Notes: generated from the letters alone by a model not told the origin. Shown: positions 9,132-27,844, counted from the stretch's first letter. The stretch: 64,000 bases of DNA from Dictyostelium discoideum (GCA_000004695.1 CM000151.3:5152001-5216000), one strand, 5' to 3'. Numbers and translations are program-made.

Positions 9132-10094
9132 ATGCGTGTTCTTGTTATATTTATACCAAAATCATTCCCTAATAAATGTTTACACTTCAAAAAACTTGGG
9201 TAAGTATTTTTACTAAAAATAGTTGATTATCAAAAGTTAGTAAACAATTTTCTAATAAATTTTTTAATTTTTTAATTTTTTAAAAAAAATATTTCAGATT
9301 ATGGATAATTTTCCAAGCTTCAATAAAAGAAAAATCAAATCACCAAAAGTAAGTATTTAAAATTTTTAATTTATTATTTTTTAATTTTTTTTTTTTTTTT
9401 TTATTGACAATTTTTTATTTTTTTTTTTATTTTTTATTTTTTTATTTATTAGGGAAATCCTTACTGAACAACAACAACAACAAATAATAAATAACCATAT
9501 AAATAATTCAATTTCAAGTGAAAATCTTGTAATTCCATTAAATAATTATGAAGAAAGTCCAACCCAATCCAATATATCATCATGTTATTCATCACAATCT
9601 AATTTATCAAGCTATAGTAGCACTGGAAGTTTAAGTAGTTATTATGGTTCAAACTATTATCATGGTGCAAGTTCAAGTAGTATTAGTAGTATCAATAGTA
9701 ATATTGCAAATTCAAATTCAAGTAGTACTGGTAGAGATTCAACACCAACACCAACACCAACACCAATTCAAACTCCTTCATCAACTCCATCTAAAAAGAA
9801 AAGATCATGGAGAATTAGAACACCATCACCAAAGCCAAAATTGGAATCAAACAACAATCATCATCATAATCATCATAATTATTACAATAATTTCTCTGAA
9901 ATTTCAATTGAACTACCACCAACCCCAACATATCCACAAAAACCATCATTCTTATCAAATTCAAATCAAATTCCAAGACCAAAATCAAGACATTCTCATA
10001 CAAATTCTGCTGATAGTTATACTTCATCATATTCATCAACTTATCCATCTTCAACAAGATCTTCTCAAAAACAACCACCATATTATCAACAACC

Positions 10095-10128
<34 letters not shown>

Positions 10129-10152
10129 ATTAATAATTTCAATTTTAATGGA

Positions 10153-10242
<90 letters not shown>

Positions 10243-10962
10243 TCCAATAATATGAAAATTTCAACATCACCAAATAAACTATCAAATTCAAATCATTCAA
10301 CAAATTCAAACTTTTCACAATGTTCATCAAGTCATAGTTTATTAGATACCAATATTGGTGGTATCAATGTAAATACTCAAAATTTGGTTTCATTTACAAA
10401 TGAAACTTCAAACTCTGGTTCAACTATTATAAAGCCTGTTGCACTTAAATCTAGTAGCAGAAGCGTATTTAATAGTAGTAATAATCAACAATATCTTTTC
10501 TCTTCTTCGACTTTATCTTCATCTTCTTCGACTAAAACTAATAATAATTCAACAACAACCACCACTACCACCACCGCCAAAACATCATCAACTTCAACAA
10601 ATGATTACTCATCTATTAAAGGTAAAAGTTTAATAGATGATGATGCATCCTGCTCGATTTCTTCATTTAATGCAATTGAACAACAAGTTCTAATTCCAAC
10701 GGTCCTATCATCATCCTCTTCATCTCATGTTATGAAAAGAAGTAATGGTAGTTCAAATGGTGGTAACTCCACCATACAATCACCATCTTGTAATCAAATA
10801 TCGATCAATAAGAATAACTTGGTAGATATCGATGATGAGGATGAGGATGATGAGGACGATATCAATGGCCATTGGGAAAAAATTACAATACCATCTAATA
10901 TGTGTAGAGATCAAATCTCAATTAAAAATAATTTTGATGAATCGACAAAAGTAATTTGCTAA
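9132..10962 (+). CDS. low-complexity Ser/Asn/Thr-rich protein (unknown function)
   Basis: Proposed exons: 9132..9199, 9298..9348 and 9453..10962. The donors are GTAAGT at 9200 and 9349, the acceptors are ...TTTCAG and ...TTATTAG, and the phases are consistent (2+1, 2+1). Exon 3 is a long ORF with poly-N (AAT)n, S/T tracts and an acidic DIDDEDEDDEDD tail. The 5' exon assignment is the uncertain part. The ORF-track entry 9644..10255 is a wrong-frame artefact. Confidence 0.45.
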
Positions 10963-11251: not shown

Positions 11252-12865
11252 ATGAACATTTCAAATGATAAAAATATTTCAAAATTAAATATTAAAAATA
11301 ATAATGGATTTGGTAAAAGTTCTAATATTTTTGATATGGTTGCAGGAACTCCAAATAATATTTTTGATCCATATGATATTTGTTATGGAGAAAAAAGAAG
11401 TAATCAAGATATAAATGATTCAATGATATCATTAATGTAAGTTTTATTTATATATTTATTTTTTTTTTTTTTTTTAAATCTAATTTTTTAATATTTTTTA
11501 TTTTTTTTCAAAAAAAAAAAGAAATAATATTTCAAATTTATATCCATTAATAATTGGATTTTTTACAGTTTTCTTTGAAAAACCAATAAACTCAACAATT
11601 GATTCTGAAAAATTAAAAATAATAATTGAAAAAATGTTAAAATCTGACAATTCAACACAAGAGAAATCATTAAAAACAACAAATCAATGGATAAATTCAT
11701 GTGTAGAATTAATGATGAAAATTTATGAAAATTCAAATGATTTAAAAAAACTATTATTTGAAAAAAAAGATAAACTTTTAAATTCAAATTATAAAAAACA
11801 TGAATTTGGAGAAACAAGACATATTCTAGAAACAAATATAGAGAAATTAGAAAAATCAATTCAAGATCTTTTAATACTTTTATCAAATTCTTTAGAAAAT
11901 ATTCATGAAAATATTAATATTTATTTTGAATCAATTTTAATTTATATTGCTTTTATTCATAATGTTGATGTAATTATTAAAAATAATTGAAAAAAATTAA
12001 GAATAAATATTAAATAAATAAATACTAACATATACACATGTAATTTTTTAAAATTTAGTTGTTATGGGAAGTTTATGATATTGAACCAATTTTAATAACT
12101 GGTGCTAAAAAATCTGATAGATTAAGTGATGAAAATGTTTCATCGTTTAGAGAAAGATTACATGTTTTCATTTCATCATTTTTAAAAGATGTTGGTAGAA
12201 CATCAGAGAAAACAATGTTAAATCCATGTTGGAATGATATGTATAAAGTTTTATGTGAAGATTTAATTTTATATCCACAGAAATTAATAATATTCAATGA
12301 ATTAATTACTAATACTGATAGAACCACCGGTTTAAAACAATTCAATTTACCAGAAATTAATAATCAAAATTATATTTTCAGATTTGATGCAAAATATGTT
12401 GGTACTGATAATGAAAATAATAAATTAAAAGAATATATTACAAATTGTTATGGTATGTCATTCTATGGTAGTGGTATTGGTAGTGGTGGTGGTGGTGGTG
12501 ATAGTGGTAGTAGTAAATTATCATTCATATTAGAATCAAAAACCAAGAAATTCATATCCATTAGATTATATGGTATGAAAAATGAAAACATTGAAAATAT
12601 AAATATTAATATTTTCAATTGTGATGATAATAAACCACAACAATTGTTGGTTGATCAAGATACTATCAAACCTTTAACATTACAATTATCAAATTATTTA
12701 CCTTCAAATAATAATTTAAACTCAAATTTCGTTGGTTTCACAAATACAAAAAAAATTAAATTAAACAATGTTAAAAATTTAATTGAATTTAATTTTAATG
12801 GAAATGAAAATAAAAAATATTTCTTATACTTTATTGAAATTTTAGTAAGTTATCAAAAACAATAA
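11252..12865 (+). CDS. hypothetical protein (no recognisable domain)
   Basis: Phase-consistent model: exons 11252..11312 (donor GTAAAA, carry 1), 11569..11969 (acceptor TTTTACAG; donor GTAATT after ...HNVD) and 12059..12865 (acceptor AAATTTAG). The ORF-track ORFs 11252..11440 and 11634..11990 read through donors into intron. The product contains a Gly-rich segment GSGIGSGGGGGDSGS. Confidence 0.45.
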
Positions 12866-13036: not shown

Positions 13037-14886
<1,850 letters not shown>

Positions 14887-14942
14887 TGTTTGGTTGGAAA
14901 TGAAACTTGTCAATTGAAATTTTTTCAAAGTTTTTTTGAAAA

Positions 14943-14999
<57 letters not shown>

Positions 15000-15309
15000 C
15001 CAAAATTGATCCAAACAAAAATGGAAAAAAAAAAAAAAAAATTATTTTAATAGTAAAAGATGGTTTTTTATTTTATTTGTTTATTTTTATTTATTTTTAT
15101 TTATTATAATGTCAAATTTGAATTTATTTTTTTGGAAAAATAAAAATTTAATAAAAACATAATATATTATTTAATTAATTGTTTTTTTAAGGGAATTTTG
15201 AGTTTGACAGATTAAGTGTATTAAAATAAGTTTTAACTTTATTTTTTTATTTTGTTTTTTTACATTTTTATTTTATTTTATTTTTATTTTATTTAATTTT
15301 ATTTTATTT

Positions 15310-15359
<50 letters not shown>

Positions 15360-15777
15360 CAAAAAAACGACCACCTTTTGAATATTTTTTTTTAAGCTTT
15401 TCCTTTTTTTTTTTTTTTTTTTTTTTTTTTTCCCAAACACATCCTTCTGTTTCACTGACACATCCCCCACATCCACAAAAATTTATTCCAACAAAGAGAT
15501 AGAAAACAATAGTACCAAAATTACTTTTTTTTTAAAATAAAAACAACAGAATACAACAAATTTAAATAAACTATTAAAAATAATTTTTATAGATAATACA
15601 AATATAAACAGTTAATTGTTATATTAAAAAAATAAAAAAAAAATTTATAAAAAAAAACTCTGAAAATAAAATAAAAAAATAAAATAAAATAAAATAAAAT
15701 AAAATAAAATAAAATAAAATAAAATAAAATAAAATAAAATAAAATAAATCAAAATAAATTCATTGTAATTTTAAAAT

Positions 15778-16603
15778 ATGGAAAAGGAAAAAAAGAAAAG
15801 TGGTGGTTGCTATTGTGGGCCACCAATAGAAGAGCAAATGGAGAATAAACAAGAAAATGAAATAAATAAAATAGATAATAATAGTGATAATAATAATAAT
15901 AATAATAAAGAGGAACTAGATACAACAAGATCAGAAAAAAGAAGAAAATGTTGTGATATGTGCCAATGTAATAACAATAAAAAAAAGAAAAGAAAGAATA
16001 AAAAGAAAAATAATGAAATTGATAGTAGCAGTGGTAGTGATGATGAAAGTGAATATAGTAGTGAGGAAGAAGATGAAAATGAAGATGAAGATGAAGATAA
16101 AATGAAAAGAAAAAAATCAAATAAAAAGAAATCTGATGAAGATAATAATAGTGGTAGTAAAAGAAGATCTCAATTAAATAATTATAACAATAATAATACT
16201 TTTAAAAATGAATCGGAAGATGAAATTTATGATTTTGAAGAGCAAAGTTTTGAAAATGATAGTGAATATAGTCAAAGAATTATCAACAATAGAATACCAC
16301 TAAGACCTGATAGAACAAGAGATGGATCACCCGATTCTTCATATTCATCATCAACTACAACAAATAAAGATTTCAATCATGGTGGTGGTCAACAAAAGAT
16401 TCAATGTTGTGATAAATGTTCAAAGGATAATAGACCAAATGGTAGAGCTTGTTTATGTCAAGTTCCATCGACTCACAGAAGAGGAATTTTAGGTGAAAGT
16501 GGATGTATTACTTGTGGTTGTGTTGGTTGTCATCCAACCGATGTATTGGAAACAAAATCATCAAGTAGTTTTATAATAACAAATAATAGCAATAGCAATA
16601 GCA

Positions 16604-16681
<78 letters not shown>

Positions 16682-17757
16682 GTAATAAAAACAATAATAA
16701 CAGTGATGTTGGTATTAATAAAAGTTCAAATAGCAACAATGGTAATAGTGTTGATGAATTAAAAAATGGTTGTTGTAGACCATGTATGAAAGCATTTTCT
16801 GAAAATGATAAAGCATGTTTATGTCAAGTACCAAGTAGTGTAAGATTAGGTGTTCTACCAGAAGGTGGTTGTAGGATTTGTAAATGTAAAGGATGTCATC
16901 CTGAAGAATTCACAAAGAAAAGATTCGATGGTAGAGGAGTAGGTAATGGAAAAAGAATTTTACCATATCAACAACAACAACAATCATCATCACAACAATA
17001 CCATCATATTGATTCTCGTAACCCTTATGATGATTTTTATGGTAGATATCCACCAATTCCACATCATTTCTATCCACCACCACCTCCACCACCTCCACAA
17101 TATAGGGGTCATCACCATCATCATCCACCACCACCTCATCACCATGCATATCCACATCCACCTCCCTATTCAGGTTACCCAGATATTCATCATCCACATC
17201 CACCACTTTGGGATGGATATGATTCAAGAGATCCAAGAGGGGTTTTAGGTGGTTATGGACCTGATAAGAAATCATCATACAGAGATAATGGTATGGTTGG
17301 TGGATTTGAAAGAGATCGTTCAAAAGAAAGAATAATCGATAATAGATCTGATTATAGTGATAGAGATTATTCAAGAGGAAGAGATAGAGAATTTGATGAT
17401 AGAGATTTATCTAGAGAAAGTACAAGATCAAGAGATCGTTCAAGAGAAAGAGACAGAACAAGATCAAGAGATCGTTCAAGAGAAAGATATACAAATGATA
17501 ATAGTACAAATAATAGCAATTATAATAATACTAATAATAGTAGTAATAACAACAATAATATAAATAATAAATATAAAGAAAATTACTATGGTGGTGGTAC
17601 TTATAGTGAAGATGATTTTGGTAAATCTCAAACAACTAAAGATTATGATTTATATGAGAAAGAAAATCAATATGAAAAAAAGAAAGAATCTGATTGGTAT
17701 TCTCCAAATTATACCTTTAGTAATAATAATAATAATAATAATAATAAAAGAATATAA
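15778..17757 (+). CDS. protein with two tandem G10/Bud31-type cysteine-rich zinc-binding motifs, His/Pro-rich region and RS/RD-rich C-terminus
   Basis: Single 659-codon ORF with aaaATG context. Two copies of the motif CC-x2-C-x9-ACLCQVP-x10-GC-x2-C-x-C-x-GCHP are present:
- QKIQCCDKCSKDNRPNGRACLCQVPSTHRRGILGESGCITCGCVGCHP
- GCCRPCMKAFSENDKACLCQVPSSVRLGVLPEGGCRICKCKGCHP
These resemble the Bud31/G10 C-terminus (...CC.RC......NCICRVPK......C.HCGCRGC).
The C-terminal half has PPPPPPP/HHHH runs and RDRSRERDRTRSRDRSRER repeats. Confidence 0.7.
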
Positions 17758-18227: not shown

Positions 18228-19282
18228 TTAATTAGCACCATCAACACTTGGTAAAATAACTTGTGGATCTGGGTACCAATAATTACCATTTGGATTAACA
18301 TTACCAACTCCCATTACATTTTCACAATTATTTAAATAAAATTGTTTCATCATTTTAATATCATGAATTTTTAATTGATACTCTTTTGCATTTGCAACTT
18401 TTCTACAAAATAATTTATCAAATAAAACTTTTCTAAACTTTATTTTATAAAAAAAAAAAAAATATATAAATATTTAATATTAATAATTTTAAAAAAGTAA
18501 AAATAAAATAATTATAAACTTACACCATTTTTTGATAAATATTCATGTGAACCAATTGAATAATATAAATCTTCATTACCTTTATCACAAATTAATATTG
18601 GTCTTCCTTGAGTTGTGAATTTATGAGAACCCAAGTATAATGAAACTTGATCAACCATAACACCATAATATTGTTTAATTAAATCAATAGATGTTGGTTT
18701 AACATTACCATTTAAATTATAGAATGAAATGATATTATTAATGATTGTTTCAGATGGTTCTTCAATATTTGTACCCAATAAAATTGTATGATTTGTATTA
18801 TTTTTAGTTTGTTCCATTATCAATTCAAATTTATTTAATAATTCTAGTGCATTACAATGTTTTAATAATAATTTAAAATCACCATAAAAAATAACTCTGA
18901 TATTGGTTTCTTTATACATTTTAACTAATTGTTCATTCTCTAATAGTTCTGATAAACCTTGTAAATATTGAATGAAATATGAGAGATAATCAGATGACTT
19001 ATCTTCAATTTTATCACACCACATTGGAACACAAATTGTTTTAATACCATGTTGACACATCATAACCAAATCATACAACAATTTATTAATTGAAACATTT
19101 GGAGCCATTGCTGTTGAACATTGATCAATATTCTCCATATCATTTTCATTATTAGAATTTAATTTAAAAGTTGATCCATCAAAAGCATAAACAATTGTAT
19201 TATTACCTGAAAGTTTTTCAATAACAATTTCACTAATTTCCTTATCACTTAATTTATTAAAATTTTCAAAACTAGTAACCAT
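18228..19282 (-). CDS. hypothetical conserved protein, 2 exons (function unknown)
   Basis: Minus-strand exon 1 is 19282..18524, ending ...SKNG with GTAAGT donor at 18523. The acceptor is ATAAAATAAAG at 18438. Exon 2 is 18437..18228 (FRKVLFDKLFCRKVANAKEYQLKIHDIKMMKQFYLNNCENVMGVGNVNPNGNYWYPDPQVILPSVDGAN*). The phase is 0/0, the composition is globular and there is no low-complexity sequence. A weak, unverified resemblance to the central region of cis-prenyltransferase-like proteins (IRVIFYGDF...LLGTN) is noted. Confidence 0.55.
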
Positions 19283-22866: not shown

Positions 22867-23454
22867 TTTTGGAAATCGACATATCTATTTTTATTTTATT
22901 ATTTTTTTTATTTATTTTAATTTTTTGATTTTTTTAATTTTTTTTAATTTTTTTTTCTCATTTAACATATGTTCCAGTACATGATCATTATTTTTATTAT
23001 TTTTATTTTTTTTTTTTTCCATTTTTTTTTTTATTTTTTCAAAATTTTTTTTTTTTTTATTTTTTTTTTATTTTTTTAATTTTTTTTTTTTTACTTTAAT
23101 TTTTTTCAACATAAATTCATACACCTCCTTTTTTAATTTTTAACCACACTTCATATAATAGAGAAAAAAAAAAAAAAAAAAATAATATTAATAAACTTAT
23201 CATAAACTCACTCACTGACATTCCTTCATCCTATGTAATTTGAAATTTATCCCTAATTAAAGAAATAGAATTATAATAGAATGGTAGACCAAGATAAAAT
23301 AAAGCCAAAGCAACAGCAAAATAATTTTTCAAATAATAATAATAATAATGATAGTACACAATTAAATAATAATAATAATAATAATAATAATGACAAAAAA
23401 AAGCAAAATATTTCAAATAATAATAATAATAATAATAATAATAGTACACAATTA

Positions 23455-23523
<69 letters not shown>

Positions 23524-23883
23524 CAAAATACTATAAATAATAATAAAATAAATTCAAAACAAACACCTATAAATACAACCAATACAAATACTACAAATAC
23601 TACAAATACAACTACAAATACAACTACAACAAATATCCCAACAAATACAAATACCACAACAAATACAAACACCGCAACAAATACAACAAATACAACAAAT
23701 AATACAACAAATACCACAACAAATACAAATGCACCAACAAACACAACAACAAATAAAATAAATAATACTACAACGGCAAATAGTATAGAAAAACCTATAA
23801 TTACAAATGGTACTTTAAATAATAATATGAATTTTAGAAATGCTAATAATAAAATTAATATAAATGAAACAAATAATATTAAA

Positions 23884-23977
<94 letters not shown>

Positions 23978-24407
23978 TAGATAAAGTTTTAAATAGTAGT
24001 CAAGAAGATGATAGTTATAATACAACAATAGATATGAGCTCTTTTGAAAAAAGTTCAACAGATATAAATGGTATTAATTATTCAAACTACAACAATTACT
24101 ATAACGGTTACAGTTATGCTGTAACAAATAATAGTTTTTCCTATGTCAACAGTGGTAGTAATACCACTGATAATCGTATAATCAACAGTAGTTATAATCT
24201 TCATTATCAACAACCACAACAAATACATTATCAACCTATACAGCATCACCATTATCAACAACATCAACAAAAATATTATTCACAACCTACTTATACACAT
24301 CCACAATTATTACAGCAGCAGCAACAACAACAACAACAGCAACAACCTCAACAACAACCATTACATCCACCACAATACCAAAAACAATATCAACAACAAA
24401 TACATAT

Positions 24408-24474
<67 letters not shown>

Positions 24475-25094
24475 ATATATATACAACATCAACACCAACA
24501 CCAACCACAACAACAACCACAACAACAACCACAACAACAACAACATTCTCCAAAACAAACATCTCCAAAATCAAAATCACAACAAACACCAACAGCATTA
24601 ATATCAACACCAACACCAACATCAAAACCAATCTCAACAAAAATAGAAAAACCGGAAAAACAACAAGAGAAAAAACAAGAAAAATCGGAAAAACAAGAAA
24701 AAGAACAAGAACAACAATCATCACTCCTACAACAACAACCACAAGAAAATAAAACAAACTTTGAAAATGTTAATAATTTAATTTTAAATAGTAATGAACC
24801 AATCTCAAGTTTTGTTGCTTCAGATATGACCGAGTTAACAGAGGAATCAATAAATTCGATTTCATGTGTCTCATTTGGTAATTTTACAGTCGAACATTGG
24901 AAAGCCGTAACAATCTCTCCTTTGGTATTTTTACCCGATGAATTTTATATATATCCAATTAAAAATAATAATAATACAACAATCACAACCACCACTACAA
25001 ATAATACAAAATCAAACTCACCAACAAAAAATAAAGATAATTATATAATACCCCATAATAATAATAATAATACTGGAAACTTTGAATACCTATT

Positions 25095-27844
<2,750 letters not shown>

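Follow-up and report, generated by a model that had tools for sequence, protein, structure and literature searches.

The stretch of Dictyostelium discoideum DNA analysed here as one window of 64,000 nucleotides (GCA_000004695.1 CM000151.3:5152001-5216000) has a guanine-cytosine (GC) content of about 20% and long coding runs of poly-Asn and poly-Lys, as is typical of Dictyostelium. Positions 15778-17757 of its plus strand hold one unbroken open reading frame (ORF), a complete single-exon gene coding for 659 amino acids (aa) plus stop. The encoded protein carries two copies of a nine-cysteine domain homologous to the C-terminal metal-cluster domain of Bud31/G10, and it belongs to a conserved protist family in which this domain stands free of the rest of Bud31. 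An exact-sequence look-up of the protein and of its neighbour gave no match. The nearest public relative is KAN0003430.1, a 'hypothetical protein' of 622 aa from Dictyostelium cf. discoideum, which is 76% identical and differs mostly by indels within low-complexity runs. The D. cf. discoideum locus (L002) is syntenic with the window, with a nucleotide identity of about 85%. The window protein has 24 Cys in three groups, six near the N-terminus, nine in aa 210-251 and nine in aa 332-373, and the parts that follow the N-terminal region are ordered as domain A, domain B, a Pro/His/Tyr-rich block and an Arg-rich tail.

Copy A of the nine-Cys domain extends over 16405-16530 (aa 210-251; hidden Markov model (HMM) envelope 16375-16563) on the plus strand and reads CCDKCSKDNRPNGRACLCQVPSTHRRGILGESGCITCGCVGC, and copy B, at 16771-16896 of the same strand (aa 332-373; envelope 16744-16929), reads CCRPCMKAFSENDKACLCQVPSSVRLGVLPEGGCRICKCKGC. 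Between them the translation runs through an Asn-rich low-complexity linker (16579-16743). Both blocks follow the pattern CC-x2-C-x10-C-x-C-x15-C-x2-C-x-C-x2-C over 42 residues, and ACLCQVP and GC..C.C.GCHP can be read in each of them. The original prediction had placed two tandem cysteine blocks with these same elements at 16396-16540 and 16756-16900, and the nine-Cys blocks do lie within these ranges. Identity between the copies is 39% over segments of 76 and 80 aa and 52% over the domain cores. The HMM built for the family scores copy A at 66.5 bits and copy B at 69.2 bits. The two types can be told apart by their signatures, which are '...NRPNGRAC-x-CQVP..QRR..LG..GC.TC' for type A and 'LKNGCC..CMKAFS...', continuing to CLCQVP, for type B. 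From A to B the Cys-to-Cys spacing is 80 aa, more than in any other two-domain member (12-69 aa, with 55 aa in the D. cf. discoideum orthologue).

Several independent comparisons connect these blocks with Bud31. Scanned alone, copy A matched positions 102-144 of the 146 positions of the Pfam profile BUD31 (PF01125) with E=5.5e-4 (20.1 bits), and copy B matched positions 101-144 with E=0.044 (13.9 bits); no Pfam family other than BUD31 was found for either copy alone. These are the two partial C-terminal matches to the G10 model that the original prediction expected, at sub-gathering scores. The gathering threshold of 23.8 bits is exceeded by the relatives P0012 (39.5 bits), P0016 (30.2 bits) and P0023 (26.6 bits), and PF01125 was matched at E<=0.01 in 73 of 87 family members, among which no other Pfam family recurs. 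A phmmer search of all PDB sequences with copy A returned Bud31/G10 chains as five of seven matches, including the top five. The profile of 38 homologous domains (A3) gave seven PDB matches, all of them Bud31/G10/Cwf14 and the best with E=4.2e-5. Aligned by hhalign with Bud31 C-termini, this family profile reached a probability of 97.6% (E=2.8e-12, 47 columns); the alignment of C-termini (A6) comprised the human BUD31 sequence and three others copied from HMMER alignments. An AlphaFold2 model of copy A had a predicted local distance difference test score (pLDDT) of 72.7, and its six Foldseek matches in PDB were all Bud31 chains, with template modelling (TM) scores of 0.49-0.59 and root-mean-square deviations of 2.5-4.6 A. 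The Bud31 of a thermophile has the spacing CC-x2-C-x11-C-x-C-x14-C-x2-C-x-C-x2-C, likewise over 42 residues, so the sub-motifs CCxxC, CxC and CxxCxCxxC and the total length are identical between Bud31 and the window blocks. Thus, the homology proposed earlier from the cysteine motif is supported by Pfam, by the PDB profile search, by hhalign and by Foldseek, and the ligand spacing is compatible with it. Neither in the window protein nor in ten family members was there any Pfam alignment to profile positions 1-100, which correspond to the N-terminal four-helix bundle, and the Bud31 helical domain is therefore absent, again as had been proposed. In tblastn of human BUD31 against the window only residues 99-142 align. 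As for a canonical Bud31 gene, none was found in the 64-kb window, where tblastn gave no match with E<0.1 apart from the two blocks; D. discoideum does have a separate canonical Bud31 elsewhere (PMC6406644).

It was shown earlier, in the nuclear magnetic resonance structure of yeast Bud31p, that three Zn are bound by nine absolutely conserved Cys in a cyclic Zn3Cys9 cluster, which in topology and ligand order is unlike the clusters of metallothioneins and SET domains (van Roon et al. 2015, Angew Chem 54:4861; PMC4471582). An alignment of 38 diverse homologous domains of the present family has all nine Cys invariant, as well as one Arg and one Gly, and among 87 aligned full-length proteins the nine Cys do not vary either. 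Judged by this invariance, the pattern is not a product of chance. Since each block keeps the nine ligand Cys of Bud31, a three-zinc fold is to be expected, and this conservation makes it highly probable that each block would enclose three zinc ions in its fold, so that the protein would hold six Zn. It should be noted here that in three representatives (P0070, P0084 and P0091) several of the invariant Cys are replaced by Trp, for example NGWWRNWMKAFS. As would be expected if TGA, read as Cys by organisms such as Euplotes, had been rendered as Trp by the gene caller, these residues reflect an annotation artefact and not a loss of zinc ligands.

The size of the family became apparent when 1.84 billion representative proteins (clusters at 50% identity) were searched exhaustively with the HMM. 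Word-indexed homology searches had returned 2 and 10 relatives only, and the exhaustive search was needed to reveal the family. At E<=1e-3 it yielded 160 cluster representatives, of which 92 also pass E<=1e-10. Two matched stretches are present in about twenty of the 150 matches listed, and on inspection of the sequences none of the 150 has the size and layout of canonical Bud31. Members are found in Amoebozoa (Dictyostelium, Acytostelium, Thecamoeba, Ceratiomyxa and Protostelium), in ciliates (Pseudomicrothorax, Protocruzia and Paramecium bursaria) and in the glaucophyte Cyanophora. Those carrying a taxon name are all unnamed or 'hypothetical' proteins, and none of them comes from animals, fungi or land plants. 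The amoebozoan members have a common order of parts, namely domain A, domain B, a Pro/Tyr-rich region and an Arg-rich RD/RS/RE tail, and an intron-containing orthologue on a contig from a sequencing run (L001) has domain A, domain B, a Pro-rich region and an RD/RE-rich tail. Two distant members, P0132 and P0143, have the nine-Cys domain followed by RRM_1 (E=1e-18 and 3e-16). The original prediction implied that such a domain combination is a rarity; this did not hold, as it defines a conserved protist family which is already in the literature.

The two copies have long been separate. Among 21 two-domain proteins, identity between copies in the same position exceeded identity across positions in 209 of 210 protein pairs, with means of 58% and 42%. 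Since copy A and copy B of one protein resemble each other less than each resembles the matching copy of other taxa, they are, on this comparison, ancient paralogues, and the duplication is older than the split between Amoebozoa and ciliates and is not local to Dictyostelium. Thus, the earlier description as a tandem duplication is correct in that two copies are present, but it is misleading if understood as a local event. The most conserved element of the family is copy B, with 84% identity between the window protein and Acytostelium and 58-68% to ciliates.

Some further observations were made on the family. One member (P0126) is a protein of 655 aa with EF-hands followed by a partial nine-Cys domain. 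The C-terminal element GFG(I/V)PxRTxSYIxG occurs in 36 representatives, which are ciliate-type and other AT-rich members and include P0016, P0019, P0031 and P0041; many of these also have 'RILDSDDEDL' after the domain. Neither element is detectable in the window protein. The amoebozoan tails have a short 'G(L)LP(Y/F)P' element in common and often end in SPKR-like basic motifs.

Comparison with the D. cf. discoideum orthologue allows the constraint on different parts of the gene to be assessed. There are 5 synonymous and 2 non-synonymous codon differences over the 123 codons of the two blocks, against 21 non-synonymous differences in the N-terminal 187 aligned codons. The scarcity of non-synonymous differences in the blocks as compared to the N-terminus indicates purifying selection on the two domains. 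The tail has 8 synonymous and 3 non-synonymous differences, and the whole gene 45 synonymous and 46 non-synonymous over 601 codons. As a separate observation, copy B (16744-16929) shows zero nucleotide differences from the D. cf. discoideum locus over 62 codons, where about 4-5 synonymous ones would be expected by proportion. This identity may be due to chance or to constraint at the nucleotide level.

Outside the two domains the protein is largely of low complexity. Basic runs resembling nuclear localization signals (NLS), namely KRRK, KKKKRKNKKK and KMKRKKSNKKKS, flank an acidic Ser/Asp/Glu stretch in the translation of 15937-16134 (plus strand). After the domains comes a Pro/His/Tyr-rich block at 17023-17217 (plus strand; aa 416-480), with poly-Pro runs and two PPxY motifs (PPQY and PPPY). 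It consists of 37% P, 21.5% H and 12% Y, which agrees with the His/Pro-rich block reported in the original prediction; PPxY or poly-Pro is present in several amoebozoan orthologues, not in all. An Arg-rich mixed-charge RD/RS/RE tail occupies 17293-17493 (plus strand; aa 506-572) and contains the run SRDRSRERDRTRSRDRSRER. Its 67 aa include 31% R, 18% D and 15% S, with 12 RS/SR, 14 RD/DR and 8 RE/ER dipeptides, and similar tails were found in P0004, P0008, P0010, P0012 and the L001 orthologue. Such an Arg-rich RS/RD/RE mixed-charge composition is typical of splicing-associated nuclear proteins (SR-related proteins, U1-70K). Strictly defined, an SR protein combines an RRM with an RS domain that is 50 aa or longer and more than 40% RS. 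No RRM was matched in the whole-protein Pfam scan of the window protein and its dipeptides are a mixture of RD, RE and RS, so that the tail described earlier is SR-like in composition, while the protein falls outside this definition. A sub-threshold match to Apis_Csd in the same scan was dismissed, as it reflects the RS-like composition of the tail and not homology.

The N-terminal region has six-Cys motifs (GGCYCGPP ... KCCDMCQC; 15808-15969, plus strand), with Cys at positions 11, 13, 58, 59, 62 and 64. A possible third, degenerate copy of the Bud31-type domain had been suggested here. This could not be sustained: there are only six Cys, the order is reversed, with the CxC..P piece ahead of CCxxC, nothing corresponds to CxxCxCxxC, scores with the family HMM are -1.8 and -3.2 bits, and there is no Pfam match. 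Short motifs of the CC-G/A-P, CxCGPP and CCxxCxC types also occur in dictyostelid orthologues, in P0003 throughout and in P0005 and P0009 partly. The N-terminal motifs may form a separate small element, possibly a small metal site of its own.

What could such a protein be doing? We favour a role in nuclear RNA processing, in which the window protein would most likely serve as an adaptor associated with splicing. The only known relative of its domain is part of Bud31, a component of the spliceosomal NTR complex (PMC4471582). This relationship, together with the RD/RS/RE tail, the RRM fusions of distant members, the PPxY/poly-Pro motifs and the NLS-like runs, is the reason for the preference. 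Each block would form a small rigid knob around its three zinc ions, and the two knobs could make specific contacts with protein or RNA. The Pro-rich and RD/RS regions would tie the protein into a network of SR-like and WW-domain splicing factors, and the basic runs would direct it to the nucleus. In this scheme binding of WW domains by the poly-Pro/PPxY motifs could be a contributor, as a weak and not universal point. The combined reading, in which this member of a conserved protist family of free-standing Bud31-type metal-cluster domains serves in nuclear RNA processing, has the balance tipped slightly in its favour, and the link to splicing in particular is tentative, its chance being a little short of even.

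A number of points weigh against this reading. Both Pfam scores of the window protein are under the gathering threshold, and the whole-protein Pfam scan had no BUD31 match, because of the low-complexity bulk of the protein. The surface residues differ from those of Bud31, with CxCQVP in place of CICRVP, and the invariant Arg of 'QRR' aligns with Leu in yeast and thermophile Bud31 in the alignments seen; with such differences there is no need for the window protein to have the partners of Bud31. Nor does the tail make a canonical RS domain, being a mix with 12 RS/SR against 22 RD/DR/RE/ER dipeptides. Ciliate-type members are without an RD/RS tail and instead have the conserved C-terminal GFG(I/V)PxRTxSYIxG, and the tail is therefore not family-wide. 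Because the helical domain is missing, two copies are present and the scores remain under the Pfam threshold, the window protein is, as far as its domain content shows, not a Bud31 orthologue. The original prediction also suggested that the protein is derived from Bud31, and here the direction of descent is unproven. A still more specific picture can be drawn, in which an ancient eukaryotic family, with the A/B duplication preceding the split of Amoebozoa and Alveolata and with a glaucophyte member, would constitute a protist-specific SR-like splicing or RNA-processing factor that docks on the spliceosome or on RNA by means of two zinc knobs. All of its parts together are unlikely to be right. 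If true, it would mean a lineage-restricted spliceosome accessory protein which has never been studied.

The alternative which survives best is that of a nuclear regulator of DNA or chromatin, in which the Zn3Cys9 knobs would recognise DNA, as does MSL2 CXC, or belong to pre-SET-like chromatin machinery, the RD/RS tail being incidental. Other Zn3Cys9 domains (MSL2 CXC, pre-SET) are described in outline as acting on DNA or chromatin, and NLS-like basic runs and acidic stretches are typical of chromatin proteins. However, the Pfam, PDB-profile and Foldseek matches were exclusively to Bud31, with no CXC or pre-SET similarity, the topology of the Bud31 cluster is unlike that of SET domains as well as of metallothioneins (PMC4471582), and the only recurrent type of fusion partner seen is the RRM, which is not a DNA-binding domain. 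We consider this explanation distinctly improbable.

The protein could also be a mimic or competitor of Bud31, a free domain that occupies the Bud31 docking site (Prp8, Prp17, U6 region) and modulates the function of NTR. Bud31 has most of its basic patch in the helical domain (PMC4471582), which is missing here, and the surface residues other than the Cys and VP positions are unlike those of Bud31. The families are well separated too, as none of the 150 matches listed is Bud31-like in size and layout and the scores of Bud31 chains with the family profile are no more than 21-27 bits. Such a mimic therefore seems quite unlikely, even though the domains share ancestry with the cluster domain of Bud31, the I/L-C-x-V-P element that is part of the conserved patch of Bud31p (PMC4471582) is kept as C(L/I/V)CQVP, and coexistence of the two proteins is possible in Dictyostelium, which retains its separate canonical Bud31 (PMC6406644).

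Buffering or sensing of metal in the manner of a metallothionein, with the clusters serving zinc or cadmium homeostasis, might be considered because of the eighteen clustered Cys, the Zn3Cys9 arrangement that metallothionein beta-domains also have, and the His-rich stretch after the domains. Conservation of non-ligand residues across supergroups (QVP, the invariant Arg and Gly, MKAFS) is atypical for metallothioneins, and the long protein also contains low-complexity regions of nuclear type and an RD/RS tail, while some members have RRM fusions; the idea has very little to commend it. That the Cys pattern arose by chance in a low-complexity ORF or a pseudogene, as might be feared in a genome of about 20% GC with abundant low-complexity ORFs and for a protein whose whole-protein Pfam scan gave no meaningful match, is refuted by the nine Cys being invariant across 87 proteins from several eukaryotic supergroups, by the purifying selection on the blocks, by the intron-containing orthologue with the same architecture and by the profile-profile E-value of 2.8e-12.

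The surroundings of the gene were also inspected. Directly before the start codon (15778) there is a (TAAAA)n microsatellite, perfect and about 17 units long (15665-15750). On the opposite strand, the upstream neighbour (13933-15018, minus strand) is a ribonuclease of the CAF1 family (PF04857, E=4e-46) with a long poly-Asn insertion and, at the level of the ORF, a poly-Lys start; this gene probably has its true start or an intron elsewhere. The neighbouring ORFs 18512-19282 (minus strand), 12059-12865 (plus strand) and 9841-10962 (plus strand), of 256-373 aa, had no Pfam match at E<=0.01. Strong composition skew (GC skew -0.60, AT skew +0.43) was seen in 24001-26000, for example at 24393-24545, inside the overlapping long ORFs 23281-25251 and 25095-26381 (plus strand), where one minus-strand frame is poly-Cys. 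This skewed stretch is a low-complexity coding repeat with no relation to the Bud31-type gene.

The architecture itself is not new. In the paper on the Bud31p structure a "small family" in "protozoa and amoebi" was reported, in the text and in Fig. S11, to have the domain without the helical bundle and mostly in tandem (PMC4471582). Because of this report of a tandem standalone family, the central observation of the original prediction had been published before. In the text of the supplement of that paper, where the Fig. S11 alignment is an image, 'Dictyostelium' is not mentioned. The discovery is thus a modest one, as the architecture was noted in 2015 and the protein corresponds to an ordinary annotated hypothetical protein in the genome of a relative. 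What is new here is how large and how taxonomically widespread the family is, together with the antiquity of the A/B paralogy, the amoebozoan downstream architecture, the RRM fusions and the purifying selection. The Bud31 Zn3Cys9 cluster emerges as an autonomous, portable domain, conserved across several eukaryotic supergroups in RNA-processing-like proteins. Dictyostelium is genetically tractable, so the gene offers a practical entry point for finding the binding partners of the domain, and identifying them could throw light on the contribution of the cluster domain to Bud31 in the spliceosome.

It remains to place the window protein among known systems. MSL2 CXC, pre-SET and the metallothionein beta-domain all have nine Cys and three zinc in a cyclic cluster, as is expected for the window domain, but no Pfam, PDB-profile (family profile) or Foldseek match to any of them was obtained and only Bud31 was recovered. 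The C-terminal RS/RD/RE tail resembles SR and SR-related proteins and the mixed-charge domains of the U1-70K type; unlike canonical SR proteins, the window protein has no RRM, and RS/SR is in the minority among its RD/RE dipeptides. With the family of van Roon et al. it has in common the Bud31 Cys pattern without the helical bundle, two tandem copies, an amoebal host and no assigned function. The copies of that family were described as 'closely spaced', whereas here an Asn-rich linker places them 80 aa apart. The 2015 account makes no mention of an RD/RS tail, of A/B paralogy or of fusions to an RRM, nor of a family as broad as the one found here (about 160 clusters at 50% identity). In comparison with Bud31/G10/Cwf14 (PF01125) the window protein has no four-helix bundle, two copies instead of one, loops of 10 and 15 residues where Bud31 has 11 and 14, Q for R in CxC(R)VP, and a length of 659 aa with low-complexity regions as against about 145-157 aa. 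It shares with them the 42-residue nine-Cys motif with CCxxC, CxC(R/Q)VP and CxxCxCxGC and all nine zinc ligands, and the predicted fold of its domain superposes on Bud31 chains at TM scores of 0.5-0.6.

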